Assembly: GCA_050950025.1 (NCBI GenBank)
Contig: JBMNGW010000009.1
Span: 10,145 to 74,144, forward strand
DNA: 64,000 nucleotides
From: Sphaerochaetaceae bacterium
Lineage (GTDB): Bacteria > Spirochaetota > Spirochaetia > Sphaerochaetales > Sphaerochaetaceae
Direction of reading: 5' to 3'
Position 1 is the stretch's first letter; every line of letters begins with the position of its first letter. The notes beneath the pieces are model-generated. The model saw nothing but the letters and a program-made list of their open reading frames with translations. It was not told the origin of the DNA and made no database searches. The position numbers and the translations under genes were made by a program. Below, piece after piece: positions 693 through 54,355 of the stretch.

Positions 693-1556
693 CTAGCGGG
701 TCATCATCGTGCCGATGCCTTCATTGGTGAAAATTTCCAACAACATCGAATGGGGAATTCTCCCATCGAGAATGTGAACACTTTCCACCCCTTTTCTAAT
801 ACCGTCCATGCAGCATTGGGTTTTGGGAATCATTCCGCCACTGATTGTTCCATCAGCAATGTAGCGCTCTGCCTCAGCAAGGCTCAGCTGGCTGAGAATG
901 GAAGCAGGATCATCTTTGTCGGCCAAGATACCCTCCACATCGGTCAAAAAGACCAGCTTTTGCGCATTAAGAGCCCCGGCAAGAGCACTGGCAGCATAAT
1001 CGGCATTGATGTTGTAGGTGTTACCACTGTAATCGGTACCAATCGGAGCAACAACGGGCACAAAATCGGCTTTCATCAACGAGTCGAGCAAATCGGTGTT
1101 AACTTTCACCACCTCCCCAACAAATCCCAAATCTTTGCCTCCGGCTAGTTTTTTTCTGGCAATCAAGGTATCACCGTCTTTACCGTTAATTCCCACGGCC
1201 TGAATCCCTTGTCCCTGCAAACTTTGCACCAATTCTTTGGAAATAGAGCCGGAAAGGACCATTTCGGCAATATGGGCTGTCTCGGCATCAGTGACGCGTA
1301 ACCCATCGACAAAATCGCTCTCTTTACCCAATTTTTGCATTAAAGTAGTAATTGAATTTCCCCCGCCATGGACAACTATGGGCCTCATACCGATTCTTTT
1401 CATCATGGCGATGTCTTGGATGATGGACTTTTTCATCTGCTCATCGACCATGGCACTGCCGCCGTACTTAATGACGACCGTTGAGCCGGCAAACCTTCTG
1501 ATATACGGTAGAGCCTCAATTAAAACTTCTGCTTTTTGTATGACATTTTCCATCAT
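693..1556 (-). CDS. argB: acetylglutamate kinase
   Basis: 287-aa ORF with VVIKYGGSAM and VHGGG amino-acid-kinase motifs. Lies in the arg operon. Confidence 0.93.
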   Translation of the reverse strand: MMENVIQKAEVLIEALPYIRRFAGSTVVIKYGGSAMVDEQMKKSIIQDIAMMKRIGMRPIVVHGGGNSITTLMQKLGKESDFVDGLRVTDAETAHIAEMVLSGSISKELVQSLQGQGIQAVGINGKDGDTLIARKKLAGGKDLGFVGEVVKVNTDLLDSLMKADFVPVVAPIGTDYSGNTYNINADYAASALAGALNAQKLVFLTDVEGILADKDDPASILSQLSLAEAERYIADGTISGGMIPKTQCCMDGIRKGVESVHILDGRIPHSMLLEIFTNEGIGTMMTR

Positions 1557-2776
1557 TAACTTCTATATTCTCCATTTATTCTTACATACTCATACGATAA
1601 ATCGCAGCCCCAGGCTGTTGCTTCCCCTGGACCATCTCCGACAACTGCCTCTACTTGAACCACTTTTTGTGTGAGTATCTTTTTGGCCAAATCTTCGTTG
1701 AAAGCAACCGGGACCCCTTTATCTAAAACAACTATCATCCCCGCTTCACTGATATACGCTAAAGATACGCTCTGGGGGTCAAAGTTCGCTCCCGAGTACC
1801 CCATGGCACACAAAAGGCGTCCCCAGTTGGCATCCGCGCCAAAAAAGGCCGTTTTCACTAAGCTGCTGGAAATAGCACTGCGAGCCATCAGCCGAGCATC
1901 TTCTTTTGAGGGGGCCCCTTTGACATGCATCTCAATAAATATGCCTGCCCCCTCACCATCTTTAACAATGCTTTTGGCCAAAGCGGTGTGGACAAACAAA
2001 AAAGCCTCTTCAAACACAGATCGTTGAGGATGATTTTCATCTATAACAGACGTACCGCTAGTCCCGTTGGCTAAAACCAACACCGTATCGTTGGTACTGG
2101 TATCGCCATCGACGCTAATCATATTGTAGGAATCAACAACAGTGCTTTTTAACAGGCTTTGCAAATACGATTGCTTTACAGCCGCATCGGTGGTAATAAA
2201 CGCAAGCATCGTAGCCATATTGGGGTGTATCATTCCCGATCCTTTAGCCATCCCCCCAATTCGCACAGTTTTGCCCTCCAACTCTATTTCCAAAGCCACC
2301 TCTTTAATAAAGGTATCGGTTGTGCAAATGGCTGCAGCTGCTTCACTGGCCGCTTCAACGCTGCTTTGACAATCGGCTAAAGCAGCGGCTATCCCTTTTT
2401 CAATGATTGGCATCGGTAGCGGCACACCAATAACCCCTGTGGAGCAGACCAACACTTGTGTTGGTGCAATCTGTAAGTGGTCTCCCACCAATTCGGCCAT
2501 TTTTTGACAATCAGCATACCCTTGGGTACCGGTGCACGCATTGGCATTGCCGCTGTTGGTTACTAGAGCTTTCACCTTTTGTCCGGAGGCGACAATCTGT
2601 TGGTCCCACACCACAGGAGCCGCTTTTACGACATTGGTGGTAAATGAGCCGGCAACAGTTGCGTCATGGGAGCTGATGAGGACCATAAGATCTTTATTTT
2701 TGCGCTTTAAACCGGCAGCAGTCGATCCGACTGTAAACCCTTTTGCTGCAGTAATTCCACCTGTAATCTGTTTCAT
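1556..2776 (-). CDS. argJ: bifunctional ornithine acetyltransferase / N-acetylglutamate synthase
   Basis: 406-aa ORF with ArgJ-like sequence, including the autoprocessing region MLAFITTDA and the C-terminal YVRINGEYRS. 1-nt overlap with argB. Confidence 0.93.
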   Translation of the reverse strand: MKQITGGITAAKGFTVGSTAAGLKRKNKDLMVLISSHDATVAGSFTTNVVKAAPVVWDQQIVASGQKVKALVTNSGNANACTGTQGYADCQKMAELVGDHLQIAPTQVLVCSTGVIGVPLPMPIIEKGIAAALADCQSSVEAASEAAAAICTTDTFIKEVALEIELEGKTVRIGGMAKGSGMIHPNMATMLAFITTDAAVKQSYLQSLLKSTVVDSYNMISVDGDTSTNDTVLVLANGTSGTSVIDENHPQRSVFEEAFLFVHTALAKSIVKDGEGAGIFIEMHVKGAPSKEDARLMARSAISSSLVKTAFFGADANWGRLLCAMGYSGANFDPQSVSLAYISEAGMIVVLDKGVPVAFNEDLAKKILTQKVVQVEAVVGDGPGEATAWGCDLSYEYVRINGEYRS

Positions 2777-2784
2777 ACACTCTC

Positions 2785-3843
2785 CTACAACGGGAAGGGG
2801 GCAATCATATCGATTCCTGCCGACTCGGCAAATCCCAAAGCAATATTCATATTCTGCACAGCCTGCCCCGCAGCCCCTTTGACTAAGTTATCTAAAGCTC
2901 CGCAGGCAATCAGGCGATTTGTTCTCTTATCGACTGTAAAGCCGATATCAACATAGTTAGAACTTTTTACCCAACGTGTTTGGGGGAAAACTCCCGGTTC
3001 AAGCATCCTAATAAACTGCTCTTTGTCATAATGCTTCTTATAACTGGCCTCAATCTCTGACAGACCGACCCCTTCTTGCAAATTGGCATACACAGTGGCC
3101 AAAATTCCTCTGTTCATCGGCACCAAATGGGGAGTAAATTGGAGAACCACATCTTTAATCGACTTTCCGTGTGTTAAAGAGAGGGCCAATTGTTCTTCAA
3201 TTTCCACAGTGTGGCGATGGGTTCCCACCGCATAGGCCTTCAATGTTTCATTTACTTCGCAATACAGTGAATCGAGCTTCTCTCCCCTTCCTGCTCCCGA
3301 AACTCCGCTTTTAGCATCAATGATGATGCCTTTACTCTCAATTAGCCTGTCATAAAGTAGCGGATGGAGCGTTAAAATAGCGGTGGTGGTGTAACATCCT
3401 GGATTGGCAATTAACCGAGAAGCGGCAATGTCACTGCGATACAGCTCTGACAGACCATAAACAGCTTGGTTTAGTAATTGCGCAGAGCCGTGGGAGGTGT
3501 TATACCACTGTTCATACACTGCCACATCTTTCAATCGATAATCGGCTCCCAAATCAATAATCAGACATTTTTTTAGAATCTCGCTATTGAGCTGGTGGCT
3601 CGAAATACCATGAGGTAATGAAAGAAAAAGTACATCGCAACGATCTGCCATCTGAGCTATGTCGGCAGAGTCGAGCTGTTGATGATATATTTTACCAAAA
3701 TTAGGATAGACACTCTGATAGGGCGAGCCTGCATGACTGTGAGAGCCGCACAGTATGCTTTGAATGTTTGGATGGGCCACCAGCAGGCGCATAAGTTCGC
3801 TTCCTGCATAGCCGGTTGCTCCAATAACTCCAACTGTAATCAT
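2785..3843 (-). CDS. argC: N-acetyl-gamma-glutamyl-phosphate reductase
   Basis: The ORF track starts at 3930, but the family-typical N-terminus MITVGVIGATGYAGSEL begins at ATG 3843. Active-site region NPGCYTT is present. Confidence 0.9.
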   Translation of the reverse strand: MITVGVIGATGYAGSELMRLLVAHPNIQSILCGSHSHAGSPYQSVYPNFGKIYHQQLDSADIAQMADRCDVLFLSLPHGISSHQLNSEILKKCLIIDLGADYRLKDVAVYEQWYNTSHGSAQLLNQAVYGLSELYRSDIAASRLIANPGCYTTTAILTLHPLLYDRLIESKGIIIDAKSGVSGAGRGEKLDSLYCEVNETLKAYAVGTHRHTVEIEEQLALSLTHGKSIKDVVLQFTPHLVPMNRGILATVYANLQEGVGLSEIEASYKKHYDKEQFIRMLEPGVFPQTRWVKSSNYVDIGFTVDKRTNRLIACGALDNLVKGAAGQAVQNMNIALGFAESAGIDMIAPFPL

Positions 3844-4027
3844 GTGTTTATCTCCCTTATACTCGTATTTACTGTATATATATTCATTTTCTTTTTTTGT
3901 ATACCCATTTTCATGCATATTTATGCACAAATAGCCTTTTTGTTCCCGTTATACGCTAAAAAGAGATTTCAAGTCAACCATTTGTCGCATTTGCAACATA
4001 AATAGATGGGACAGGGCCCCTTTTTTA

Positions 4028-4501
4028 GTGTATGATGCCGCTATGAGAAGAGAAGACAGAGCACAAAGTGAAGCTTTTGCCCGCCGCATCTTTGATGAAG
4101 CGGAGTACGGAGTATTATCCCTCGTTGACCAAGATAATCGACCCTACAGCATCCCTGTTTCTCCCGCTATTGAGGGTAACACTATCTACATCCACTCCGC
4201 AGTTGCGGGAAAGAAATTGGACCTTATTGCATCCAACAATTACGTAAGTGTCACCTGTGTGGGAACAACTAAGCTCCTTCCTGCTGAATTTGCCACCTTG
4301 TATGAATCGGCAACAGCGTTTGGTAAAGCTAAAATAGTCACCGACGATGCTGCCAAACGCCAGGGATTAATGGTTATCGCCCGCAAATACTCGCCCGAGT
4401 ACACAGAAGAAGCCCAACAATACATCACCAAAAAAAATGCTCTTGTAACCCTGATTCAAATTGAAATAGAAACCCTGAGTGCCAAAGCACGCCTAATATA
4501 A
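4028..4501 (+). CDS. pyridoxamine 5'-phosphate oxidase family protein, Nim-like (nitroimidazole-reductase family)
   Basis: 157-aa ORF collinear with the NimA architecture (MRRxxR..., PYxIPVS, IYxHSAxxGxKxD, KYSP). The start could be the internal Met at 4043. Confidence 0.7.
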   Translation: MYDAAMRREDRAQSEAFARRIFDEAEYGVLSLVDQDNRPYSIPVSPAIEGNTIYIHSAVAGKKLDLIASNNYVSVTCVGTTKLLPAEFATLYESATAFGKAKIVTDDAAKRQGLMVIARKYSPEYTEEAQQYITKKNALVTLIQIEIETLSAKARLI

Positions 4502-4512
4502 GAGGTATACCC

Positions 4513-4815
4513 ATGATTGAGAATGTTTATACATTTAGTACAGAAGAGTTAACGCACGTTGAGCGAATTGTCCAACAAGAAAATCTGAGAATAAACCATT
4601 TGAGTTTGGCAGTAGGAGATGCTGTGGATCCTCATCCCACACCCGAAGCTGCCCACATGATTGTTACCAGCGGCACCTTAGCGTTAAAACTCAACGATCA
4701 AGAGCAAAAACACTATCCCGCCGGATCGATTATCGGCATCCCGGCTAACACCATGCTCCACATTGCCAATGGCGGGAATAAGGCGATGCATCTCTTTGTC
4801 ATCAAGACTGAATAA
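4513..4815 (+). CDS. cupin domain protein
   Basis: 100-aa ORF of small beta-barrel size with a G-x5-HxH-like region (DPHPTPEAAHMIV) and GSIIGIPANTMLHIAN. RBS-like GAGG lies upstream. Confidence 0.6.
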   Translation: MIENVYTFSTEELTHVERIVQQENLRINHLSLAVGDAVDPHPTPEAAHMIVTSGTLALKLNDQEQKHYPAGSIIGIPANTMLHIANGGNKAMHLFVIKTE

Positions 4816-5032
4816 GGAGTCTTGCAATTGCAACAAAACAGAGGAGTATCTGTTGCATGAGTTTCTATTTGCACCAAATGACCCTCTGAATTGTTGCATT
4901 TTTGACAAAAATCGGATATACGTCCTGCATGAAGATGTTGCGAGGTTCACGTGATTAACCAGTGCGTCCAGCCTTTTGCCGGCTTAAGGTGCCGGCTTGC
5001 CTTTGCGCACATCTTTAACGTGAGCAAAAAGG

Positions 5033-5068
5033 AGCATTCTGCCTCAGTGCGGAGTGCTCTTTTTATTT
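5033..5068 (+). terminator. intrinsic terminator-like hairpin in the purL leader (possible attenuator or expression platform)
   Basis: agcattctg (5033-5041) pairs with cggagtgct (5050-5058) as a 9-bp stem including G-U pairs, with an 8-nt loop. It is followed by CTTTTTATTTTA and ends 22 nt before the purL ATG. Confidence 0.6.
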
Positions 5069-5090
5069 TATCGTCCAAAGGGAGACTCTT

Positions 5091-7400
5091 ATGGAAGGAA
5101 CAACCCGCTTTGACATTCAGTCGATGACTGATCAACAAATCGAACAACTAATGGGGCAGCTTAACGTCGGCCTTTCTGTCTCTGAAGCCAGAGACCTGCA
5201 AAATCGTATTCTTGGTCGCAGTCCCACATTAGCCGAGCTAATTTTGTTCGGTATTGAAGGCTCGGAACACTGTTCGTACAAAAGCAGTCGCCCCTACCTC
5301 AAACTTTTCCCCACCGACGGAGCTGATGTTATCATCGGAGCCAAAGAAGATGCCGGGATTGTCCGCATCTGTTCAGACAACCAAGGCAACGGTTATGGTG
5401 TTGTCGTGAGCCACGAAAGTCACAACCACCCCTCCCAACTTGTCCCTTACGAAGGGGCTGCCACCGGTATTGGGGGAAACATTCGTGATGTCTGTTGTAT
5501 GGGAGGCTCTGTGATTGCCGTCGGCGGTGATTTTCGCTTTGGTAATCTAGATATTCCATACAACCGTTATTTAGCCGACCAAGTCGCAGAAGGAGTTGCT
5601 GGGTATGCTAATCCCACCGGAGTTCCCGTTATTGCAGCTAATGTGCAGTTTGACCCTTCGTATAATGATAACTGCTTGGTAACAGCCGTCACATTGGGCA
5701 TTGTGCGAGAAAAGGAGATTATCCACTCCTATGCTCCATCCAATGCTGATGGGTATGATTTAATTTTAGTGGGCAAGAGCACTGATAACAGCGGTTTTGG
5801 CGGAGCAAGTTTTGCCAGTTTCGATATCTCTTTGGCCGATGAACATGTGAATAAAGGGGCCAACCAAGAACCCAATGCATTTTTGGGACGACTGTTGATG
5901 CGCGCAACTGATGAGCTGGTAGCTCTCCTTAGTGCCAAAGGTTTAATTGATCAAGTTGCCTGCAAAGATTTGGGAGCAGGCGGCATCGCCTGTGCCACGG
6001 TGGAGTTGGCTGAGGGGGGAGGCTACGGAGCTTTTGTTAATGTCGATTTAGTTCACAAAGCCAGCGATGAGCATCCCCCGTATGTAATTCTTTGCTCCGA
6101 AACGCAAGAGCGGTATCTGTGGGCGGCACCTAAGACCATTACCCCGTTGATTCTTGACCATTTCAACTCCACGTTTGCTTTGAGTGAAGTCTCCCATAAA
6201 GCTCAGGCAACTATCATCGGTCATATTACCAACTCGACTAACTATATTGTCGTTTCCGAAGGACAAGTACTCATTGATGCACCGGCAAGTGAAATCACCA
6301 AAGGCTTTTTGTACCACAGACCCTTAGGTGAGCCTCTTGCGCCTCAAGATGATCCAGTTTTGCCGCTTCCAACAGATTTGAAAAGCGTGTGGTTAGCTAT
6401 TTTGAGCCACCCCAATGTAGCTAGCAAAGAGGCTATTTACAACCGCTTTGATCGCCATGTGCAAGGTGATGTCATCCAACCTCTGGAATCTGCACAAGCA
6501 GGCATTATTACCCCCTTTAACAACCAAGAGTTTCCCCAGGAGATTCAGCAGGTGGGAGTAACTCTTAGCTGTAGTCAAAACCCCCGTTTTAACGCTATCG
6601 ATGCCTACCAAGGGGCCTATTTAGCAGTCTTACACTCTTTTGCCAATACGGCTGCCAGCGGAGCACAAGCGATTGCTATCAGCGACTGTCTTTGCTATGG
6701 GAATCCTGAAAATCCTGTTGCAATGCGACAGTTCGCCGACGGGGCTAAAGGGGTGGCCGATGCTGCTACCGATTTGGGTGTTCCGGTAATAGCAGGCAAT
6801 GTTTCGCTGTACAACGAATCTAAAGATTCGGCAATTGTTCCCAGCCCCATGATTGCTATGATTGGCAAATTTGACGATGTGCAAACAGCCTTACCGATGC
6901 AATTGCAGCAAGCTGGATCAACATTGCTCCTCATTGGCCAAATTGCAAACGAGTGCGGAGGAAGCATCTATTGGGACCTCTATGACAAAAGGGGAAGTTC
7001 CCTACCCCAAGCTAATGCTTCAGAGATGAAAAAAGCTGCCGCCGCCATTGCAAAATTGGCCGCAACAAAAAAGATTGCCAGCTGCCGCACCATTGCTGAA
7101 GGGGGCTTAGCTACTGCAGTAAGCCTCATGGCCTTTGGCTCAGAGTTTGGCTGTGCATTGAGCACTCAAGAAACTCTGCGCGATGATCAGTATCTCTTTA
7201 GCGAAAGTTTGGGCTTTATTGTGGAAGTGGAAGCTGAGCATCTGCAAACAGTTCAACAGGTTATAGAGCAAGCTAAGCTGCCGTACACCCATATCGGTAC
7301 AACAACTGCCAAGCAGAGCATTACTTATAAGGATATACATATTGACCTCATTGAAGCTCAAAGCCTCTATAACACCGCTTTGACGACAATGTTGCAGTAG
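5091..7400 (+). CDS. purL: phosphoribosylformylglycinamidine synthase subunit PurL (small PurL type)
   Basis: 769-aa ORF with EHCSYKSS, SHNHPS and duplicated AIRS/AIRS_C-like halves. GGAG RBS at 5081-5084. Confidence 0.93.
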   Translation: MEGTTRFDIQSMTDQQIEQLMGQLNVGLSVSEARDLQNRILGRSPTLAELILFGIEGSEHCSYKSSRPYLKLFPTDGADVIIGAKEDAGIVRICSDNQGNGYGVVVSHESHNHPSQLVPYEGAATGIGGNIRDVCCMGGSVIAVGGDFRFGNLDIPYNRYLADQVAEGVAGYANPTGVPVIAANVQFDPSYNDNCLVTAVTLGIVREKEIIHSYAPSNADGYDLILVGKSTDNSGFGGASFASFDISLADEHVNKGANQEPNAFLGRLLMRATDELVALLSAKGLIDQVACKDLGAGGIACATVELAEGGGYGAFVNVDLVHKASDEHPPYVILCSETQERYLWAAPKTITPLILDHFNSTFALSEVSHKAQATIIGHITNSTNYIVVSEGQVLIDAPASEITKGFLYHRPLGEPLAPQDDPVLPLPTDLKSVWLAILSHPNVASKEAIYNRFDRHVQGDVIQPLESAQAGIITPFNNQEFPQEIQQVGVTLSCSQNPRFNAIDAYQGAYLAVLHSFANTAASGAQAIAISDCLCYGNPENPVAMRQFADGAKGVADAATDLGVPVIAGNVSLYNESKDSAIVPSPMIAMIGKFDDVQTALPMQLQQAGSTLLLIGQIANECGGSIYWDLYDKRGSSLPQANASEMKKAAAAIAKLAATKKIASCRTIAEGGLATAVSLMAFGSEFGCALSTQETLRDDQYLFSESLGFIVEVEAEHLQTVQQVIEQAKLPYTHIGTTTAKQSITYKDIHIDLIEAQSLYNTALTTMLQ

Positions 7401-7410
7401 GAAGGGTCCC

Positions 7411-8475
7411 ATGAAGCAAGAAAAAAGCATCAGTTATAAAGATTCGGGAGTTGATATCACAGAAGGCAATTTGGCTGTAGAGCTGATGAAAGAGGCCGTG
7501 GCTTCCACCTATTCGCCCCGCGTCATCGCTCCTATTGGCAGTTTTGCCTCGATGTATGATATCAGTACCCTAGTCAAAGAGTATAAACATCCTGTGTTGG
7601 TCCAAAGTGTGGACGGAGTGGGCACCAAAGTCACGGTTGCCCGCATGGTTGGCGATTTCTCTACTATCGGAGAGGACCTCTTTTATGCCTGTGCCAACGA
7701 TATAGCGGTCCACGGAGCCAAGCCGTTGACCTTCCTTGATTATATTGCCAATGACGTACTTGATGCTCGTGTGGTCGCTAGCATTGTTAAAGGCATTGCC
7801 AAAGCCTGTGTTGAGTGCTCAACATCGTTAGTCGGTGGCGAAACAGCCGAAATGCCGGGAGTCTACTTAGCAGGTGAGCATGATTTAGTGGGACTGATTA
7901 CCGGCATAGTTGAAAAAGAGGATTTGATTCAAGGCCACAACGTCCAAAAAGGGAACGCTATTATTGGCATCGGATCTAGCGGTTTACACACCAACGGTTT
8001 TTCTTTGGCGCGCAAAATTTTGTTTGAGCACGGTAAACTGACAGTGGATCAACCGCTGTATACAGACCCCAGCCACACAATAGGAGCGGCTCTTTTAAAA
8101 CCGCATGCCAATTATATCAACGGCGTTCAAGAGCTTTTGGCTAAAGGGGCCCCCATTCTTTCAATGGCCCATATTACCGGCGGCGGCTTAGTGGAAAATG
8201 TACCGCGAGTTATTCCTCAAGGATTAAGCGCCCGTTTCTACCCTTCACGATGGAGCGCCCCGCCTATTTTCCAAGCCTTACAGCAGATTGGGAACGTCAA
8301 CTTTAGTGAAATGTACCGAACATTTAATATGGGAATCGGGCTCGTCATTATTGTGGAGCAAAGCGATAAAGAATCTGTTTTAAAGATGGCACAACAGGCC
8401 TTTAATCTTCCTGTGTGGGAAGTTGGCGAAATTGCGCAAGGAGAAAAAACATGGATCGAGGGGGTCACCGTATGA
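7411..8475 (+). CDS. purM: phosphoribosylformylglycinamidine cyclo-ligase (AIR synthetase)
   Basis: 354-aa ORF with SYKDSGVDI, DGVGTK and ITGGG motifs. Confidence 0.93.
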   Translation: MKQEKSISYKDSGVDITEGNLAVELMKEAVASTYSPRVIAPIGSFASMYDISTLVKEYKHPVLVQSVDGVGTKVTVARMVGDFSTIGEDLFYACANDIAVHGAKPLTFLDYIANDVLDARVVASIVKGIAKACVECSTSLVGGETAEMPGVYLAGEHDLVGLITGIVEKEDLIQGHNVQKGNAIIGIGSSGLHTNGFSLARKILFEHGKLTVDQPLYTDPSHTIGAALLKPHANYINGVQELLAKGAPILSMAHITGGGLVENVPRVIPQGLSARFYPSRWSAPPIFQALQQIGNVNFSEMYRTFNMGIGLVIIVEQSDKESVLKMAQQAFNLPVWEVGEIAQGEKTWIEGVTV

Positions 8476-9731
8476 AAGCGCGCTTAGCAGTCATTGAATT
8501 TCCCGGAACAAATGATATCACCACAGTGGTAAAAGCAGCAAAAAAAGCCAATATTGAGGCAGTTGTGTACCGTTGGAATGAAAAAGAGCTCGATTTTTCC
8601 TCCTTTGATGCCTATGTGCTCGCCGGTGGATTTTCATTTCAAGATCGCAGCCGAGGGGGCATCATTGCCGCTTTGGATCCGCTGATGGAAAAGCTCAAAT
8701 CTGAAGATGCTAAAGGCAAGCCCATTTTGGGAATCAACAATGGAGCCCAGATTCTCCTTGAAGCAGGCCTTGTTCCCGGCTTTGATCGCTATGAAGTAGC
8801 CGGCTCTTGCGCCCCTAATTTGCAACTGGTAGACAATACTGTACTCGATGCTAGTTTCTACCATGCCACCGTCTTTGTTAAACCGCTGAACAGCTCCCTG
8901 TTTTTTGAAAATACCGTTATCGAAGGGTATATCGGCACAACCGAAGGACGCTTTGTTTTTGAACCCGAAGTGCTGAAAATGCTCTATGAAAATAAAGTGG
9001 CTATGCTGCAGTACTGCGACTTTGAAGGTACTGTCGCTCAAGAATTTCCCACCAATCCCACTGGATCGATGGACAACCTGGCAGCAATAGGCAACCACAA
9101 AGGCAATGTGTTGGCCTCCATGGTCCAACCAAAACCCCCTGCCCTTTCTCAAATGCTACTGGCCATGGTAACAAACAAGAAGCTAAAGAGCTCCTTTGTA
9201 CCGTTTACGCTGCCTTCCAGAGCACCGAGTAAGAGTATTCGCCAAGCAACCCAAAAAGATGCCGAGCTTATCGTAGGAACAGCCATCACTGACGACACCT
9301 CTTTGAGTGTTGAAAAACGGCTGCACTTAATGGGCATTGCTGTTCGGATACAGCGCTTTATCCACTGGGAAATTGGCAAACAAGAAAACGCCTCTGCCAA
9401 ACAATGGGAAGCTGATGTAGCTACAGCCAAAAAGAGCTTTGAGCTGTATAACCACAACAAAGAGTATCTGCTTCAAACACTTCCCTCCAGCGATCTGGCC
9501 TTTTTAACCCGCTGCTCTGCTACTGAAGATGCATTAGGAAGGAAAACGGCCCAAGTGCTTCAAAAGCACTATGGTATTACGACATTTGCCTCTCTTAGGC
9601 ACAGCGTGTTGTGGCTTTTAACAGTCGATGAAAACGCCACTTTCGATAAAGAGGAAGTGATTGAAAAAGCTCTTGCTACCAATATCTTCAATAACCCAAT
9701 CAGTCACTGGAGAGAACATTATGAGCATTGA
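8472..9731 (+). CDS. purQ: PurQ-like (class I glutamine amidotransferase fold, triad degenerate) fused to two PurS-like repeats
   Basis: The family-typical start MKARLAVIEFPGTND is at ATG 8472 (4-nt overlap with the purM stop); the ORF-track start at 8415 is rejected. The N-terminal ~235 aa align to PurQ but read GINNGAQ instead of GxCNGFQ. The C-terminal ~155 aa (from about 9255) contain two PurS-like units ending NPISHWREHY. Confidence 0.8.
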   Translation: MKARLAVIEFPGTNDITTVVKAAKKANIEAVVYRWNEKELDFSSFDAYVLAGGFSFQDRSRGGIIAALDPLMEKLKSEDAKGKPILGINNGAQILLEAGLVPGFDRYEVAGSCAPNLQLVDNTVLDASFYHATVFVKPLNSSLFFENTVIEGYIGTTEGRFVFEPEVLKMLYENKVAMLQYCDFEGTVAQEFPTNPTGSMDNLAAIGNHKGNVLASMVQPKPPALSQMLLAMVTNKKLKSSFVPFTLPSRAPSKSIRQATQKDAELIVGTAITDDTSLSVEKRLHLMGIAVRIQRFIHWEIGKQENASAKQWEADVATAKKSFELYNHNKEYLLQTLPSSDLAFLTRCSATEDALGRKTAQVLQKHYGITTFASLRHSVLWLLTVDENATFDKEEVIEKALATNIFNNPISHWREHYEH

Positions 9732-10704
9732 CAGAGATTCCTACCGCTCAATTATTCGCAACCATCTTCATCAGGGAGTCAGCCATACCGATTTTGCTTT
9801 ACCGGAGCATTACAGCGGTAAAGTACGCGAGCGCTACCGCCTTGATGAGCAGCGGTTGCTCATTATTACCACCGACCGCCAAAGTGCTTTTGACCGTATT
9901 TTGGCTACTATTCCCTTTAAAGGAGCGGTGTTAAACCTCGTTTCTGCTTGGTGGTTTGAGCACACTTCCCCCATTATTGCCAACCACCTACTGCAAATTC
10001 CCCACCCCCAAATAGCGGTGGTCAAAGAGTGTTCTGTCTTTCCAATTGAATTTGTGGTTCGGGGGTATATTACCGGCACTACCAACACCTCACTGTGGAC
10101 AGTTTATAACAGCGGCCAAAAAGAGTACTGTGGCCATGTGTTACCCGAAGGGTTGGTGAAAAACCAGAGACTTGCTAAACCCCTGCTCACTCCCACCACT
10201 AAAGAAAAGACGCACGATCGTCCCATTTCACCTGCTGAGATTGTACAAGAGGGGTGGATGAGCCAAGCCGATTGGGACGAAGCAGCAGCTAAAGCGCTGG
10301 AACTGTTTGCCTACGGTCAAAAAACAGCTTTGGAACATGGGTTAATCTTAGTCGACACAAAGTATGAATTTGGCAAGGATAAAGAGGGAAATATTATCCT
10401 GATTGATGAAATTCATACTCCCGACTCCTCCCGCTATTGGCTGGCCGACAGCTATGAAAGCCGCTTTGCATCCCAACGGGAACCTGAGTCGATCGACAAA
10501 GAGTTCCTCCGTCTTTGGTTTGCCCAAAACAGCGATCCTTACCATGATAAAGAGTTGCCTGTGGCTCCTGAAGAGTTGGTAGTTGAACTGTCGCTGCGGT
10601 ACATCATTTTGTATGAGATGATAACCGGCAAACCATTTCCTTTCCCCAGCGGCAGCTCAATTGAGCAGGCCGTATCAGATATTATAAAGGAGGCATCAAA
10701 GTGA
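9721..10704 (+). CDS. purC: phosphoribosylaminoimidazole-succinocarboxamide synthase (long form)
   Basis: ATG 9721 (MSIDRDSYRS...) is chosen over the 9661 track start. SAICAR synthetase motifs YSGKVRERY, TDRQSAFD and LVDTKYEFG are present. Confidence 0.9.
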   Translation: MSIDRDSYRSIIRNHLHQGVSHTDFALPEHYSGKVRERYRLDEQRLLIITTDRQSAFDRILATIPFKGAVLNLVSAWWFEHTSPIIANHLLQIPHPQIAVVKECSVFPIEFVVRGYITGTTNTSLWTVYNSGQKEYCGHVLPEGLVKNQRLAKPLLTPTTKEKTHDRPISPAEIVQEGWMSQADWDEAAAKALELFAYGQKTALEHGLILVDTKYEFGKDKEGNIILIDEIHTPDSSRYWLADSYESRFASQREPESIDKEFLRLWFAQNSDPYHDKELPVAPEELVVELSLRYIILYEMITGKPFPFPSGSSIEQAVSDIIKEASK

Positions 10705-11099
10705 ACAGTGAAGTCATTATAATTATGGGTTCTGAAGCAGATCGTCCTTTTGTCGCTTCTATCACTGCCGAACTAACACTCCTGGGCATCTCATATAAAG
10801 AGTATGTCGCTTCGGCTCATAAACAGCCGCTAAAGGTGTTGCAGATTCTTCAGGAACACGAAAAACAGTCTCGGCTTGTTTACATAACGGTTGCCGGTCG
10901 TTCCAACGCTCTTTCGGGCTTTGTGGCAGCCAATTCAATTGCTCCGGTTCTGGCCGTCCCCCCGTTTGCCGATAAGCTCGATATGCTGGTTAATATCCAT
11001 TCAACACTGCAAATGCCTTCCAATGTACCGGTAATGACAGTCCTTGATCCGCGCAATGCTGCTTTGGCTGTCCAAAGAATTTTGGGAGTTGCCCAATGA
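10701..11099 (+). CDS. purE: AIR carboxylase, class II PurE-like
   Basis: GTG start with AAGGAGG RBS at 10687-10693. IIIMGSEAD N-terminus. Contains SAHK (class II signature) rather than the class I SAHR. No purK in the operon. Confidence 0.85.
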   Translation: MNSEVIIIMGSEADRPFVASITAELTLLGISYKEYVASAHKQPLKVLQILQEHEKQSRLVYITVAGRSNALSGFVAANSIAPVLAVPPFADKLDMLVNIHSTLQMPSNVPVMTVLDPRNAALAVQRILGVAQ

Positions 11100-12520
11100 G
11101 CGGAATTGTTGGCATCATTGGTTCTTCTGAGGTTGCCACTCAGCTCTACGACAGTCTTATCCAATTGCAACACCGCGGCCAAGATGCAGCTGGTATCACC
11201 ACCTGCGATCAGCGGTTCCACTTTAAAACCGGTTTGGGGTTTGTCCGCGATATCTTTTTAGAACGGCACATCAAGCGGCTTAGCGGAACGATGGGAATAG
11301 GCCATACCCGCTACTCCACCAACGGAGATGCAAAAAATAGTGACTCTATTCAACCTTTTTGGAACAGCGCCCCTTTTGGCATCTCATTTGCTCACAGCGG
11401 GGCTATTGTCAATGTCAAAACCCTTACTGAGATGGTCATTAACCAACGGCGCCGTTACTTAAACACCTCTACTTGTAGCGAAGTATTAATGCAATTATTT
11501 TCCTCTTCGCTTGAAACAGGGCTTATTACGGATGCCAAGCGCCCCTTTTTTGATATCGTAACAGAATCGGTTGCTGAATTGATGCAATTGGCCCAAGGTT
11601 CTTACTCTGTTATCTCCATCATCAAAGACAAAGGGCTGGTAGCCTTCCGTGATCCTCATGGTATTACCCCTTTGGTGTTAGGAGAGCGCCAAGGTCCGGA
11701 TGGGACAAGCGAATATATTGTCTCTAGTGAAAACACGATGTTTTACATGCTTGGCTATACCCTGCTGCGCGATATTCACCCCTCCGAAGTCGTCTTTATT
11801 GAACCCGATGGCACACTGCATTCGACCATCATAGGCAAAAAAGAATTTAATCCCTGCATTTTTGAATATGTGTATTACTCGCGCCCCGATGCGATGGAGA
11901 ATTCTATCAGTGTTTATCGCAGCCGCCTGCGAATGGGAGAGAACCTAGGCAAAAGATGGAAACAACAGTACGGCGATTTACGCCCTGATGTTATCATTCC
12001 TGCCCCGGCTACGGCCAACACTATGGCCTTGGCAATGGCAAAAGAGTTACAGACCAACTACTCAGACGGATTGTACAAAAATCCTTTTATCGGGCGCACT
12101 TTTCTAATGCCCGATCAACAACAGCGCAGTCAATCGGTACGCTACAAACTAGTTCCTCAGCAACTGGAAATTCGCAACAAAACGGTCATGATAGTCGATG
12201 ATAGCATTGTACGGGGAACCACCAGTCGTGAAATTGTCAGTATGGTTCGCAACTTTGGTGCTAAAGGGGTCTATTTTGTCAGTGCTTGCCCTCCGGTGAT
12301 ACAACCTTGTTTCTACGGAATCGACATCCCTTCAAAAGAAACTCTTATTGCAGCCAATAACACCGTTGAACAGATACGCAACTACCTTCAAGCCGACATC
12401 CTCTTTTTCCAAGACTTAGAGGATTTAATAGAAGCAGTTACCCGCAAAGGGGAACACAACATCGACATGCCCTGCCATGCTTGTTTGGGCGGTCCCTACT
12501 GTCAAGGAGGGCCGAAGTGA
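11096..12520 (+). CDS. purF: amidophosphoribosyltransferase, Fe-S type, with a non-canonical Ntn glutaminase site
   Basis: 474-aa ORF collinear with PurF (GHTRYST, PRTase loop MIVDDSIVRGTT, C-terminal CHAC Fe-S ligands). The N-terminus is MSGIVG rather than MCGIVG. Confidence 0.88.
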   Translation: MSGIVGIIGSSEVATQLYDSLIQLQHRGQDAAGITTCDQRFHFKTGLGFVRDIFLERHIKRLSGTMGIGHTRYSTNGDAKNSDSIQPFWNSAPFGISFAHSGAIVNVKTLTEMVINQRRRYLNTSTCSEVLMQLFSSSLETGLITDAKRPFFDIVTESVAELMQLAQGSYSVISIIKDKGLVAFRDPHGITPLVLGERQGPDGTSEYIVSSENTMFYMLGYTLLRDIHPSEVVFIEPDGTLHSTIIGKKEFNPCIFEYVYYSRPDAMENSISVYRSRLRMGENLGKRWKQQYGDLRPDVIIPAPATANTMALAMAKELQTNYSDGLYKNPFIGRTFLMPDQQQRSQSVRYKLVPQQLEIRNKTVMIVDDSIVRGTTSREIVSMVRNFGAKGVYFVSACPPVIQPCFYGIDIPSKETLIAANNTVEQIRNYLQADILFFQDLEDLIEAVTRKGEHNIDMPCHACLGGPYCQGGPK

Positions 12521-14439
12521 AACATCTGCTAGTACTTGGCAGCGGAGCCAGAGAACACGCTATTATTACTCAATTGGCCTATTCAAATACGCTGAGAGCT
12601 GAGCATACAGCCCTGCATGGACTGGGAACCACTAACAACCCCGGCATCAGTGCCATCTGCCAAGATTCGGGGGGAACTTATGCTATTGGTCCCATTACCG
12701 ACAGCTCTTTTGTAGTTAAGCATTGTCTGAAACTCAACATCTATTTGCTGATTATTGGCCCGGAGGCCCCTTTGGAAGCAGGAGTAGCCGATGCGGCTAG
12801 GAAAGCTGGCATATTGGTTATGGGACCGGGGAAAGCTGGGGCACGCTTAGAAAGTAGTAAATCTTTTACCCGGGAGTTTCTTAATACCCATCTTCCTTTC
12901 TCTTCGCCCACCTATTACACCATCAGAACGATGGAGCAAGCCAAAGAGGCTCTTAGGTCATTAGCCGAATCGTATGTGGTAAAAGCTGATGGCTTAGCAG
13001 GGGGTAAAGGGGTACTGATTTGGGGAGAGCACTTATTTAGTGATCAAGAAGCATTGGCCCAATGTGCAACTTTTTTGAGCAAAAACGGGCAGTGCGTCAT
13101 TGAACAAAAACTTACCGGCCAAGAATTCTCCCTTTTAACGCTTACCGATGGTACCACCGCTGTCCATTTACCTGCTTTACAGGACCATAAACGGGCCTTT
13201 GACAATGATGAAGGGCCCAATACGGGGGGAATGGGCAGTTACACCGACAAAGACGGTACGCTCCCTTTTCTTACTGCGTATGAGGAGCAAGTGGCTAAAG
13301 CCTATAACGAAGCCGTTATTAAAGCGATGGACTTTCCTTTTAACGGGGTTCTGTACGGAGGGTACATGGCAACAGCCGAAGGGGTGAAAATTATCGAATT
13401 CAACACCCGCTTTGGCGATCCCGAGGCTTTGAATTTGATGCCGCTTCTTAAAAGTGACGGCATTGAACTTTTCGAAAGGGTAGCTAACGGCACCCTTGCC
13501 GATTATCACCTGCAGATGGACAGTCGCCCCTCATTAGCTTTATACATCGTCCCCCAAGCTTACCCCACTTCTTCTACTGTGGGCGATGAGCTAAGCTTGG
13601 CTCCAAATGAGAAAGAGGTGAGCCTTTACTACGGCTCAGTTGATGAAAAAGAGGGCAAACTCTTTAGTGCCGGCTCGCGCAGTGTGGCGTATGTTGCAAT
13701 TGCCGACACTTTGCAACAGTGTCGCCTCTTGTTGGAAAAACCCCTTTCTCAAGTCAAAGGGAATTTTCGCTGGCGCACCGATATTGGTTCAAAAGAGGTG
13801 TTGCGTCAAAAAATAGAGCATATGCACGTATTACGAAAACCGCTGAGAATAGCTGTTTTAGGTTCTACCAACGGCACTGACATGGACTATATTGTCCAAG
13901 AGATTGCCAAAGGGACAGTCCCTGCAGAAATTGCCGTGGTGATTTCCAATGTGTGTGAGGCTGGTATTTTACAAAAAGCCAAAGCGTATGGGATTGCCCA
14001 CTTTTGCGTCGACCAAAAAGGGAAAGAGCGCGATGCTATAATCTCGGCTCTGTGCAAAGAGCATGCTGTCGATTCAATCCTTTTAATTGGGTATATGCGT
14101 ATTTTAAGTCCCCAATTTTGCCACGACTGGGAAGGTAGAATTATTAATGTTCATCCCTCCTTGCTTCCCGATTTTGCTCAAACAATGGACCAAGACACCC
14201 ATGCTCTGGCACTGAAGCGATATCGGCAAACGGGTAACGATCGCACAGGTTGCACAGTCCATATTGTGACTAGTGAATTGGATAGCGGTCCGATTTTAGT
14301 GCAAAAAGCGCTACGCATTGCTTCTGACGATACTCCTCAATCGCTGAAAAAACGGGTCCAAGTGCTGGAAGGAGAGGCTTTGAGTGAAGCGTTGAAGCGT
14401 GTATATCCTGTTGGCGGTAATTTTAACAAACTGCTTTAA
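12517..14439 (+). CDS. purD: fusion protein: phosphoribosylamine-glycine ligase (PurD) plus phosphoribosylglycinamide formyltransferase (PurN)
   Basis: GTG 12517 overlaps the purF stop (GTGA), with AGGAGG at 12506-12511. The N-terminus VKHLLVLGSGAREHAI and an ATP-grasp core mark PurD. From about 13840, LRIAVLGSTNGTD...INVHPSLLP...TGCTVHIVTSELDSGPIL marks PurN. Confidence 0.88.
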   Translation: MKHLLVLGSGAREHAIITQLAYSNTLRAEHTALHGLGTTNNPGISAICQDSGGTYAIGPITDSSFVVKHCLKLNIYLLIIGPEAPLEAGVADAARKAGILVMGPGKAGARLESSKSFTREFLNTHLPFSSPTYYTIRTMEQAKEALRSLAESYVVKADGLAGGKGVLIWGEHLFSDQEALAQCATFLSKNGQCVIEQKLTGQEFSLLTLTDGTTAVHLPALQDHKRAFDNDEGPNTGGMGSYTDKDGTLPFLTAYEEQVAKAYNEAVIKAMDFPFNGVLYGGYMATAEGVKIIEFNTRFGDPEALNLMPLLKSDGIELFERVANGTLADYHLQMDSRPSLALYIVPQAYPTSSTVGDELSLAPNEKEVSLYYGSVDEKEGKLFSAGSRSVAYVAIADTLQQCRLLLEKPLSQVKGNFRWRTDIGSKEVLRQKIEHMHVLRKPLRIAVLGSTNGTDMDYIVQEIAKGTVPAEIAVVISNVCEAGILQKAKAYGIAHFCVDQKGKERDAIISALCKEHAVDSILLIGYMRILSPQFCHDWEGRIINVHPSLLPDFAQTMDQDTHALALKRYRQTGNDRTGCTVHIVTSELDSGPILVQKALRIASDDTPQSLKKRVQVLEGEALSEALKRVYPVGGNFNKLL

Positions 14440-14448
14440 TCAAAGAGC

Positions 14449-14473
14449 AGGACCTCCCGCTAGTGGAGGTCCT
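14449..14473 (+). terminator. GC-rich hairpin after the pur operon (terminator-like, no clear U-tract)
   Basis: aggacctcc (14449-14457) pairs with ggaggtcct (14465-14473) around a 7-nt loop, starting 10 nt after the purD-purN stop. Confidence 0.45.
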
Positions 14474-14853
14474 TGCATTATGATGAAGCGCCTAGCAGAT
14501 CAGCGTGGGTGTAGATGTCTAGACGCCCCTCTTTTATGTATAGGGCTGATTAAAACATGCAACGGCTTATGTGTCAAGATGCAAGGTAGTTTTTTGTTAA
14601 ACTTCTTCTAAACTATGGCTTTCTTAAAACAAATTTTTACTTCTTACTCCTGCTTCCTTCCCATAAATTCTTCAGGTATGACACAAGAAAACATGGGGTA
14701 TGCAGATAGTTATTCTATGAAGAGTTCAGCATTTATCTTTAGGCAAACGATATTGGATTGTGTCCATTTTGTGCAGCGATGACATAACTTAGGGAATGCA
14801 ACAAGTGCTAATTTAGAATAAAGCCTGAGGTTAAAACTCAGGCTTTTAGGGAT

Positions 14854-14936
14854 TACCGGCAATCGGACTTGAACCGATACGTCCTTGCGGACAATAGATT
14901 TTGAGTCTATCGTGTCTACCATTCCACCACGCCGGC
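14854..14936 (-). tRNA. tRNA-Leu (anticodon CAA), class II with long variable arm
   Basis: Hand fold: acceptor GCCGGCG/TGCCGGT, anticodon stem ATAGA/TCTAT with loop CTCAAAA, long variable arm, T-arm ATCGG-TTCAAGT-CCGAT. No encoded CCA. A hairpin at 14821-14845 follows on the minus strand. Confidence 0.85.
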
Positions 14937-14989
14937 GCTGCAAAAGAGCTTACACCATCATTATAAAAATGACAATACGGGTTTCCCAA

Positions 14990-16174
14990 TTATTGCAGAT
15001 ACCGTTCAATATTAGCTTTATGCTCTTCATAGGTTTTGGCAGGATGAATTTCCTGTTGTCTGTCATGAATATAATAAAACCACTGATGCTCAGCTGGTTT
15101 CATAGCGGCATCTAAGGCTGCTAAGCTGGGAGATCCGATTCCCGCCGGCGGTAAGCCTAGATGAGTATGGGTATTAAAAGGGGAATCGCTTGCCGATTCA
15201 TCCTTTGTTAAAGGGCGGTCCCACACTCCCAAACCATAGCGCAAAGTGGCATCAATGCCCAAACTCATCTGGACTGCAAGACGATTGTAGATGACGCCCG
15301 CTATTAATGGCATTTGAGAGACCTTATTGGTCTCCCGTTGAATCATGGAGGCGATGATGACAATCTGTGCTAAAGGAAGACGCAGTTGATCAGAGGCTGC
15401 CAAATAGGAGTGCAGCGCCTCATTAAGAGCATCCTGCATCTGAAGTGCCAAATCGTAGGCACTGCCATGCCATTCGTATGTGCCGCTGATAAACCACCCT
15501 TCGACAAAGCCCAACCTCCGCTCTTTGGCTATAAGGGAAGCAGCCTGACTGAACTCCGTCGGTTTTATCAGTTTTCTGGCTACCAAAAGGGCATCAATGT
15601 CTTCAATGGTGAACCCAGGATATATCAAAAGCGTATTGTCAGTTGGTTTGACCAACAAAGAGGCGATATAAGCAAAAGGGGTTTGAGCTGCAAAGCTGTA
15701 GGTACCGGGTTGTAATCGGGTGGTAATTTCCAACTCTTCAAAATATGAGAGCAGTTGTTCGTGGTTTTCAATTACTCCACTTTCTTCCAACAATAGGGCT
15801 ATTTGACGGGCGCTCATGCCGCTGGTGATTTCCACATCGATTGACTGTAACGTCTTGGGAGTCAATAAAGCGGGTTTGCCGGTACTTTGGAAAATGACGA
15901 CAGCGAGGACTAAGGAGACAAATATGATGAAGCTGGCTAAAAAGGGACCGAAAGAGATATCAAATTGGACATTTTTATTTGATTTAGCTTTTGGGGGCGG
16001 CTTTTTAGGGGGAGCTTTCTTGGCAACAGGCACTTGTTTTGGGCTTTTGGCCACAACAGTCGTCTTCTTTTGACTTTTTTTGCGCTCTTCAACAATCGTT
16101 TTTGCATCATTGCGGCTAGGAACGCTACTGTCGAAGCCTAACTCTTTTTGCTCTGGTTTCTTTTGCTGCGCCAT
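14990..16174 (-). CDS. mltG: endolytic murein transglycosylase MltG (YceG family) with basic Lys/Pro-rich N-terminal tail
   Basis: 394-aa ORF with one TM segment followed by a YceG-like domain (ASMIQRET, IDATLRYG, FNTHTHLGLPPAGIGSP). Confidence 0.85.
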   Translation of the reverse strand: MAQQKKPEQKELGFDSSVPSRNDAKTIVEERKKSQKKTTVVAKSPKQVPVAKKAPPKKPPPKAKSNKNVQFDISFGPFLASFIIFVSLVLAVVIFQSTGKPALLTPKTLQSIDVEITSGMSARQIALLLEESGVIENHEQLLSYFEELEITTRLQPGTYSFAAQTPFAYIASLLVKPTDNTLLIYPGFTIEDIDALLVARKLIKPTEFSQAASLIAKERRLGFVEGWFISGTYEWHGSAYDLALQMQDALNEALHSYLAASDQLRLPLAQIVIIASMIQRETNKVSQMPLIAGVIYNRLAVQMSLGIDATLRYGLGVWDRPLTKDESASDSPFNTHTHLGLPPAGIGSPSLAALDAAMKPAEHQWFYYIHDRQQEIHPAKTYEEHKANIERYLQ

Positions 16175-53410: not shown

Positions 53411-54355
53411 TTAGCCCACTCTAAGTCTGTTTATTCTTGAACCTATCAACTCTTTGTAGTTTGTTTGCTCTTTAGTGGGTAACAAGCTTTGGTCAATCTC
53501 TTCATAAAATCGGCCCTTCAAGCTCATCAGCCGATTCATCAGAGTCTCTGATGCTTTGGCATTAATGCCATAAGCTTCAGCTAAGTATAAAAAGTCAGCT
53601 CTATTAAGCTTGCTCCGTTTTCCTCGTAACGTAAGAGCACTCTCTTCTAAGTCTTCTTTGAGTATGAGATTAGTAGGAAGTAAATCATAGGCTGGTGTTA
53701 ACACATACTGCAGGTTATCAGGGGCATATAAAGAGAAGTTCTTTAAGTGCATATCACTGTTGCCGGTAATAAAAGAGAAAACAAGGAGGGACCACAAGGT
53801 AATAGCATCGAGTAAGCGAGGCGAGTAGCGTTTCAATATTTTGCCAAGGTGCTCATATGATGAACGATATTTATCTTCAGTTAATCTTTCTCCAAGCTGA
53901 CAAAAATCTTCCATCGCTATTTTTTTATTATGAAGTCGATCAATACGTTTACATAAATATGCATATTCTCCATCTTCTAGACGATAAAGAGCATGTTCGA
54001 CAGTCTCAATGTTTGCTAATGAGGCCAGATGCATTGTCAGATGTTCAAATTCAGGGAGATAGGGATATTCCTTACTGGGAAGTTTAAGGATATACCCAAG
54101 GGGCTGACCAATGAGTGTTAATTGGCCTTTGCCTAGTTCACCTGATAAATGCAAAGATAATTTCTTTTGGACACCCGGTACAGCATATCCCTCTTGCACA
54201 CTCTGCGTTACAGCTTGTTCAAGAAACTCACTTGTAAGGTTAAGGGGAGGTAGGACCGATACACCAAAAAACTGCTTAACACATGATGAATGCCACTGAT
54301 TTTGGTGATGTTCATCTGTTATTGGTCTATTACAATGCAAACATCTTTTTTTCAT
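53411..54355 (-). CDS. hipT: HipT-type HipA-family Ser/Thr kinase toxin (kinase core only) with N-terminal CxxC...HxxC element
   Basis: 314-aa ORF with Gly-rich loop VPGVQKKLSL and catalytic loop GNSDMHLKNFS. The N-terminal HipA subdomain is missing and is encoded separately upstream. Confidence 0.8.
   Translation of the reverse strand: MKKRCLHCNRPITDEHHQNQWHSSCVKQFFGVSVLPPLNLTSEFLEQAVTQSVQEGYAVPGVQKKLSLHLSGELGKGQLTLIGQPLGYILKLPSKEYPYLPEFEHLTMHLASLANIETVEHALYRLEDGEYAYLCKRIDRLHNKKIAMEDFCQLGERLTEDKYRSSYEHLGKILKRYSPRLLDAITLWSLLVFSFITGNSDMHLKNFSLYAPDNLQYVLTPAYDLLPTNLILKEDLEESALTLRGKRSKLNRADFLYLAEAYGINAKASETLMNRLMSLKGRFYEEIDQSLLPTKEQTNYKELIGSRINRLRVG

Follow-up and report, generated by a model that had tools for sequence, protein, structure and literature searches.

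De novo purine synthesis draws nitrogen from glutamine at two steps, those of PurF and of formylglycinamidine ribonucleotide (FGAM) synthase. In Bacillus subtilis and Thermotoga maritima (structure 3D54) the latter enzyme is a complex of PurQ, PurS and a small PurL, with a PurL:PurQ:PurS stoichiometry of 1:1:2 (PMC10912719), and B. subtilis has been reported to need PurS for making purines (PMC3261824). Carbamoyl phosphate synthetase I (CPS I) retains an inactive glutaminase domain, in which the catalytic Cys is replaced by Ser, and uses free ammonia as substrate (PMC4655335). In PurF from Escherichia coli the exchange of Cys1 for Ala or Ser abolishes the glutamine-dependent activity while the use of ammonia is kept, and the archaeal Cys-less PurF' as well as Mlab_0150, a PurF with Ser, cluster with purine genes and have been proposed to be ammonia-dependent (PMC3261824). 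Natural incomplete triads are found in PurQ of Thaumarchaeota, where His is exchanged for Asn, and in the truncated PurQ-like Memar_1841 (PMC3261824). Pseudo-amidotransferases similar to FGAM synthase (vFGAM-synthase-like proteins) from herpesviruses are described as being without amidotransferase catalysis and kept for another role (PMC7605207). Here we analyzed the gene purQS, which is part of a purine biosynthesis (pur) operon in a stretch of 64,000 nucleotides from a Sphaerochaetaceae bacterium (GenBank assembly GCA_050950025.1, contig JBMNGW010000009.1, positions 10,145 to 74,144 of the forward strand; this whole stretch is called the window below). Its PurQ domain is probably catalytically dead and survives within a scaffold for PurL, with both amidotransfer steps of the operon using free ammonia. 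The initial annotation of this DNA had in essence proposed that the gene is kept in a non-catalytic role and is not decaying, which is also the reading that we favour.

Results and Discussion

The gene purQS (8472..9731, plus strand, as for all pur genes described below) is a single open reading frame (ORF) encoding 419 amino acids (aa), in which a linker joins a PurQ domain to a tandem PurS-like domain. The initial annotation had placed its end at 9254 and therefore did not include the tandem PurS-like domain, whereas its description of an intact and translationally coupled ORF agrees with the uninterrupted reading frame and with the ATGA overlap between the purQS start at ATG 8472 and the stop of purM. 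The PurQ-like class I glutaminase domain comprises aa 1–235 (8472..9176). Its collinearity with PurQ, as initially proposed, is borne out by the profile matches and by the alignment to PurQ from T. maritima (3d54_D): residues 1–221 match PF13507 with 95 bits (cut-off 27), and TIGR01737 is matched with 134 bits, which is under the equivalog cut-off of 177.8. The score on NF002957 (124.5) is likewise under the cut-off of 212; PurQS from the canonical sister locus L006 reaches 197 on TIGR01737. The AlphaFold2 model of the full-length protein is confident, with a predicted local distance difference test (pLDDT) of 86 and a predicted template modelling (TM) score of 0.85, and the best PDB match of its PurQ fold is again 3d54_D (TM 0.80, target-normalised, E 4.5e-13).

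In the pairwise alignment to 3d54_D the sequence GINNGAQ of the window corresponds to GICNGFQ and SMVQPK to LMPHPE. Consequently Asn89 (AAC, 8736..8738; initially reported one base off at 8735–8737) occupies the site where the nucleophilic Cys is expected, and Gln219-Pro220-Lys221 (9126..9134) takes the place of the expected His-Pro-Glu. The codons of Gln219 (CAA, 9126–9128) and Lys221 (AAA, 9132–9134) are located exactly where they had been reported, and five residues are deleted immediately after the MVQPK block. The assignment of Cys/His/Glu to Asn/Gln/Lys is the same in the pairwise, the family and the structural alignment. A different register of the triad was considered and rejected, as the three alignments leave no room for it and no Cys, His or Glu lies nearby; likewise the profile alignment, which had been named beforehand as a possible refutation of the triad loss, did not place a Cys/His/Glu triad elsewhere in the domain. 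In a family alignment of 122 sequences 120 carry C-H-E in the triad columns, P0014 carries S-H-E, and N-Q-K is confined to the window. With nucleophile, general base and acid all replaced, the domain is predicted from its sequence to be unable to hydrolyse glutamine. The proposal that the fold-defining residues around the triad are kept holds for the fold, as seen from the match to 3d54_D, and only partly for the residues, since 32 of the 93 conserved columns are lost.

The substitutions are real and do not originate from sequencing or assembly errors, as the PurQS protein sequence is the same in three independent assemblies: over 14.3 kb the same DNA is present in two other public assemblies with 100% (L014) and 99.95% identity (L013), the latter showing seven mismatches to the window, none of them inside purQS. 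The protein is also identical to P0001, which is annotated as 'MAG Sphaerochaetaceae bacterium'. Regarding the start codon, P0241 (426 aa) represents an alternative annotation starting seven codons upstream at ATG 8451 (MDRGGHR..., region 8451–8474), and similar 'MDRGG' extensions are found in P0006 and P0007; they are probably the conserved 3' end of purM translated in another frame. We favour 8472 over 8451 because of a Shine-Dalgarno-like motif (GAGGGGG, 8–14 nt 5' of ATG 8472) and because of the N-termini of the homologues.

The initial annotation had also regarded the remaining pur operon as intact. This does not apply to the amidophosphoribosyltransferase gene purF (11096..12520; TIGR01134 407 bits, cut-off 350), which is located three genes downstream of purQS and whose product is also without the glutaminase nucleophile and residues of the glutamine site. 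PurF from the window starts with MSGIVGI, while E. coli PurF and the other aligned PurFs outside of the clade described below start with MCGIVGI. In the alignment to the E. coli enzyme Ser (AGC, 11099..11101) replaces the Cys1 nucleophile, Ser101-Gly102-Ala103 (11396..11404, E. coli numbering) replaces Asn101-Gly102-Asn103, and Cys127 (TGT, 11474..11476) replaces Asp127, and of 76 PurFs only that of the window shows the last exchange; Arg73 and Gly102 of the glutamine-site residues are kept. An upstream start restoring the Cys nucleophile was excluded, as the in-frame stretch contains neither a start codon nor the sequence Cys-Gly-Ile-Val-Gly. Of the 76 aligned PurFs only five others share Ser1 with the window, among them P0124, P0125 (= L002), P0127 (= L008) and the protein from L004, and all remaining 70 (69 metagenomic homologues and E. 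coli PurF) show Cys1. Asn101 and Asn103 are replaced throughout this Ser1 clade, and Arg73 is changed to Lys in every member but the window. Judged from these residues, the glutaminase site of the window PurF is disabled while its phosphoribosyltransferase domain is intact. As PurF encoded in the same operon is also affected, the loss is one at the level of the pathway rather than of a single subunit, and both nitrogen-transfer steps encoded in the operon appear to be ammonia-dependent and glutamine-independent.

One could also imagine that the clade has simply swapped the Cys for a Ser nucleophile and still uses glutamine, the window PurQ then being a later and separate loss. N-terminal Ser can act as nucleophile in other N-terminal nucleophile (Ntn) hydrolases, Ser1 is found without exception in the six PurFs of the clade, and the Ser-His-Glu triad of P0014 is formally plausible. 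However, E. coli PurF with Cys1 exchanged for Ser shows no glutamine-dependent activity (PMC3261824), Asn101 and Asn103 are replaced in the whole clade and Arg73 is Lys in all members but the window, the window PurF has lost Asp127 in addition, and the N-Q-K of the window PurQ offers no possible nucleophile or base. We therefore regard such serine chemistry as highly improbable.

While the glutaminase modules are impaired, the C-terminal half of PurQS is well preserved. The tandem PurS-like domain (aa 263–419, 9258..9728) resembles a PurS dimer or the N-terminal domain of large PurL. Modelling of the C-terminal 162 aa separately (AlphaFold2) resulted in a pLDDT of 92, and Foldseek matched this domain to large PurL (4lgy, 6jta, 6lym) with a query TM of 0.65–0.69 and E values from 7e-6 to 2e-5, the matched part of large PurL presumably being its N-terminal domain. 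Single PurS chains (1vq3_C, 2cuw, 3d54_B) were matched over half of its length, with about 80 columns each. At the sequence level the similarity is weak: the Pfam profile for PurS (PF02700) matches the window domain with E 0.11 and 13 bits (cut-off 22.2) and only four of 12 family members, the best with E 4.5e-4, and a profile search of the domain against the PDB sequences gave no match. According to the structural models the gene is a PurQ-PurS-PurS fusion, an architecture which is common in Legionella, Marinimicrobia and relatives of Sphaerochaeta. Proteins of this family, about 420 aa in length, are widespread (2036 hits in the homologue search) and also occur in named genomes of Legionella, Coxiellaceae, Marinimicrobia and Opitutales; the close homologues are annotated as Sphaerochaeta or Sphaerochaetaceae. 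In the window 22 of the 25 conserved columns of the PurS-like domain are kept compared to 61 of 93 assignable ones in the PurQ domain. The PurS-like half is thus the best-conserved part of PurQS and provides a concrete reason for the retention of the gene.

To place these changes in an evolutionary context we reconstructed a neighbour-joining tree from PurL, PurM, PurC, PurE and PurDN (2224 columns), which unites the window, L008, L004 and L001/L002 with 100% bootstrap support and leaves the canonical L006 and L010 outside. That Ser1 arose separately in the window PurF, as hinted at by the single-gene PurF tree, is rejected by this five-protein tree. Ser1 is hence common to a clade of four lineages and predates their split, and all of them have kept the operon, in the same gene order wherever enough sequence is available. 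As the operon has stayed intact in four lineages since the loss of Cys1, with protein identities of about 50–70% (37–41% for purQS), the nucleophile of PurF appears to be dispensable for the pathway. The PurQ domains of this clade are degenerated to differing degrees. Whereas the family median is a C-H-E triad with 119 of 121 conserved columns kept, L008 (C-H-E) keeps 109, P0014 from L001 (S-H-E) 100, P0010 from L004 (C-H-E) 93 and the window (N-Q-K) only 83. The losses in the window PurQ domain include E16/R17/E18, Y56/E57, H156, P218, R222 and T223. A related picture is seen for PurF, where the members of the clade have lost 6–11 of the 73 columns of the glutaminase domain (the median loss in canonical PurFs being 0) and have kept 94–96 of the 97 columns of the transferase domain; the window keeps 65/73 and 94/97, respectively. 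Relative to the five other Pur proteins the PurQ domain evolves at a rate of 1.57 in the window compared to 1.15–1.27 in its clade-mates and 0.99–1.13 in the canonical sisters, while the rate ratio of the PurS domain is nearly unchanged (1.86 versus 1.60–1.75). Such module-specific damage is the pattern expected if glutamine hydrolysis alone has been released from selection.

The same data bear on the question whether the operon is in an early state of decay, in an organism that salvages purines and whose de novo operon erodes from the glutaminase modules first. Within the clade purQS is the fastest-evolving gene of the operon (37–41% protein identity compared to 49–74% for the other genes), and the TIGR01737 score of the window is under the curated cut-off, as would be expected in this case. 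On the other hand all seven genes are uninterrupted and tightly packed with overlapping stops and starts, PurL, PurM, PurC, PurD and PurF exceed their NCBIfam equivalog cut-offs, the transferase domain of PurF and the PurS-like domain are conserved as described above, and Ser1 was present before four lineages separated, each of which has kept the operon. As a rough expectation, neutral drift would also have given several stops or frameshifts in a domain of 235 codons at this extent of amino-acid change. Early decay therefore seems rather improbable to us.

We give a similarly low probability to a new function of the PurQ pocket, which might have turned into a regulatory site for a ligand (glutamine or another nitrogen signal, for example) or might serve as an entry port for external ammonia; the domain would then not be a purely inert scaffold. 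Several pocket-proximal motifs do survive (FPGTN, GGFS, DRSR, KPILGI-NGAQIL-E and GRF), and for the N-terminal moiety of CPS I, with its remnant glutaminase domain, tunnels have been proposed as routes of ammonia intake (PMC4655335). However, the lost conserved columns include positions that are near the triad residues in sequence, AHAEGRF has become TTEGRF, and the five residues after the His/Glu block are deleted, all of which resembles relaxation and not a re-tuned site. Moreover, the degenerate sisters share no conserved new motif.

The favoured model of an ammonia-driven pathway with a pseudo-glutaminase scaffold would work as follows. The PurQS fusion would supply one PurQ and two PurS units and thereby the composition of the 1:1:2 PurL:PurQ:PurS FGAM synthase, and the gene would be kept since its PurS-like half and the folded PurQ shell are still needed for assembly and activation of PurL. 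PurL would amidate formylglycinamide ribonucleotide (FGAR) with free ammonia instead of ammonia derived from glutamine; small PurL has been reported to use ammonia without PurQ (Hoskins et al., 2004). The losses may have occurred stepwise, with the exchange of PurF Cys1 for Ser first, in the ancestor of the four-lineage clade; the glutaminase domain of PurQ would then have been under relaxed constraint and would have degenerated to differing degrees, furthest in the lineage of the window. It would fit to this model that the sister P0014/L002 originates from a landfill leachate-well metagenome, which is weak and circumstantial.

Some points weigh against this model. L008 and L004 retain the C-H-E triad of PurQ despite PurF Ser1, so that the losses in PurQ and PurF are not strictly coupled. 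Complete loss of the triad is seen in one strain-level lineage only, so that long persistence after this loss cannot be shown; the nearest relatives differ from the window at 0–7 bases and the next nearest show about 41% protein identity in PurQS. Ser1 of PurF might be a working nucleophile in the clade. Finally, the contig of this draft genome has a length of at least 140 kb and the search for further copies covered the 64 kb of the window, which leads to the possibility that the operon copy is redundant. In this case the genome would contain another purQ of the canonical kind, or else a large purL, together with a purF encoding Cys1, and the glutaminase modules of the operon would be decaying or specialised on ammonia. 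Precedents are archaea possessing both PurF and the Cys-less PurF', and an archaeon with a full purQ next to a truncated copy without triad (PMC3261824). In the window a tblastn search with the canonical sister proteins detected only the operon copies of purQ and purF, Pfam scans of its other large ORFs revealed no further glutamine amidotransferase, and the canonical second purQ that the initial annotation had asked for was accordingly not found within these 64 kb. Furthermore the sisters L006, L010 and L011 each have a single canonical operon to which that of the window is syntenic, and the window operon shares its flanks with L006 (PNPOx and cupin genes upstream, YceG and an ORF of 379 aa downstream). 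The shared flanking genes show that it is orthologous to the canonical one and not an additional paralogous copy. As four lineages have also kept the whole operon since the loss of PurF Cys1, we consider a redundant copy unlikely, although somewhat less so than decay or a new function.

To see whether other PurQS proteins have lost the nucleophile, we surveyed 139 representatives of PurQS clusters at 50% identity. Fifteen full-length or nearly full-length members are without Cys and mostly show Gly instead. They form at least four separate groups on the tree. Outside the clade of the window thirteen fusion proteins are Cys-less (P0292, P0303, P0327, P0329, P0333, P0334, P0350, P0359, P0373, P0375, P0377, P0380 and P0408); most of these show Gly, several are also without His, and they make up at least three groups apart from that clade. 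In L096 a Cys-less PurQS (G-H-E) is part of a pur gene cluster (folD-purA-purL-like-fumarase-malic enzyme-PurQS-purC-purE-purK) that also encodes a very divergent PurL (3012–5288 for the PurL-like gene and 8040–9320 for PurQS), which shows about 22% identity to normal small PurL and a Pfam match to AIRS_C only. The Cys-less PurQS of L095 adjoins glyA on a 2.28-Mb contig, and that of L097 is isolated. A scan with an alignment of the Cys-less relatives identified 80 named genomes, in which PurQS is C-H-E throughout and none of the Cys-less groups was found; all 57 PurF N-termini adjoining PurQS in named genomes read MCG or VCG. That the uncultured Sphaerochaetaceae-like clade runs PurF and FGAM synthase on ammonia and keeps the dead glutaminase modules for scaffolding or as ammonia conduits, and that the PurQ nucleophile was lost independently at least four times in the fusion family, which would make ammonia-driven purine synthesis a recurrent and so far unrecognised state, is a wider proposal for which we see the chances as evenly balanced.

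The pur operon of the window has the order purL-purM-purQS-purC-purE-purF-purD/N, with stop/start overlaps at the four junctions purM/purQS, purQS/purC, purE/purF and purF/purDN. The first gene purL (5091..7400) encodes the small PurL, the FGAM synthetase subunit of 769 aa, which is apparently intact (TIGR01736 592, cut-off 525.75) and carries AIRS, AIRS_C and FGAR-AT_linker domains. It is followed by purM (7411..8475; TIGR00878 353 bits, cut-off 236) for the aminoimidazole ribonucleotide (AIR) synthetase, and downstream of purQS by purC (9721..10704; NF009251 412 bits, cut-off 371) for the phosphoribosylaminoimidazole-succinocarboxamide (SAICAR) synthetase. The short purE (10701..11099, 132 aa) matches PF00731 with 123 bits and TIGR01162 with 114.5, below the cut-off of 149.6; there is no purK in the operon, and purE might encode a class II PurE acting as direct AIR carboxylase. 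At the end of the operon a purD-purN fusion (12517..14439) begins with a GTG start that overlaps the stop of purF, and it reaches 346 on TIGR00877 (cut-off 288) and 146 on TIGR00639, marginally under the cut-off of 150. Such fused purD/purN genes (about 640 aa) are present in the window, L004, L006, L008, L010 and L011, and separate genes are found in the more distant L012. In the outgroup operons of L011 and L012 purH follows purD/N. In the window (14440–16174), L006 and L013 it is absent from this position, where YceG is encoded on the opposite strand, and purH and purB must therefore be located elsewhere.

Upstream of the pur operon an argC-argJ-argB cluster for arginine biosynthesis is encoded on the minus strand (693–3930), and the same neighbourhood is found in L014. 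Further away in the window are a 906-aa superfamily 1 helicase (AAA_11/AAA_12) with a C-terminal DUF2726 (28940–31660), an architecture that may be linked to defence or mobile elements, and a split HipA-like toxin on the minus strand, in which the ORF for the HipA N-terminus (54352–54675) is located directly upstream of that for the C-terminal kinase (53411–54355).

Conclusion

If the favoured reading is correct, a free-living bacterial lineage would represent a natural purine pathway run on ammonia, in parallel to CPS I. The graded intermediates, from the intact triad via Ser-His-Glu to Asn-Gln-Lys, lend themselves to studying the roles of PurQ and PurS towards PurL beyond the supply of ammonia, be it in assembly, in allosteric activation or in the formation of a tunnel. 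For annotation the consequence is a practical one, since the source annotation names 'PurQ' and 'amidophosphoribosyltransferase' and metabolic models would therefore assign the use of glutamine to these proteins. As a speculation, enzymes without the catalytic Cys might resist glutamine-analogue inhibitors that alkylate this residue.

Compared to the PurQ/PurS/small PurL complex from B. subtilis and T. maritima, the window protein shows the same N-terminal fold, its gene is located near small purL and purM, and it combines one PurQ with two PurS-like units. It differs in the fusion of PurQ with both PurS units into one polypeptide, in the replacement of the triad by Asn-Gln-Lys and in a TIGR01737 score below the cut-off. 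Thaumarchaeotal PurQ differs by a change of a single residue, whereas the PurQ of the window is full-length and triad-less and belongs to the only pur operon detected; Memar_1841, which has been interpreted as decay, is a fragment lacking about 150 residues beside a full-length purQ. The genomes with the archaeal PurF' and Mlab_0150 also encode a canonical PurF with Cys1. In contrast, the Ser1 PurF of the window is bacterial, takes the orthologous and syntenic position that is the only one detected, and is encoded beside a triad-less PurQ. The herpesvirus proteins have been recruited for the deamidation of host proteins and immune evasion and are not encoded in a purine operon.

The closest mechanistic analogue is CPS I, which has likewise retained a class I glutaminase domain despite the replacement of its catalytic Cys; in the window the nucleophile is also replaced, and the domain is still attached and, in the model, folded. 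CPS I belongs to another pathway and another synthetase, only its Cys is replaced instead of all three triad residues, and its use of ammonia is proven biochemically while that of the window is deduced from sequence. On this basis the combination of PurQ and PurF is best described as a putative ammonia-dependent synthetase type with a retained pseudo-glutaminase, which would affect two enzymes of one pathway.

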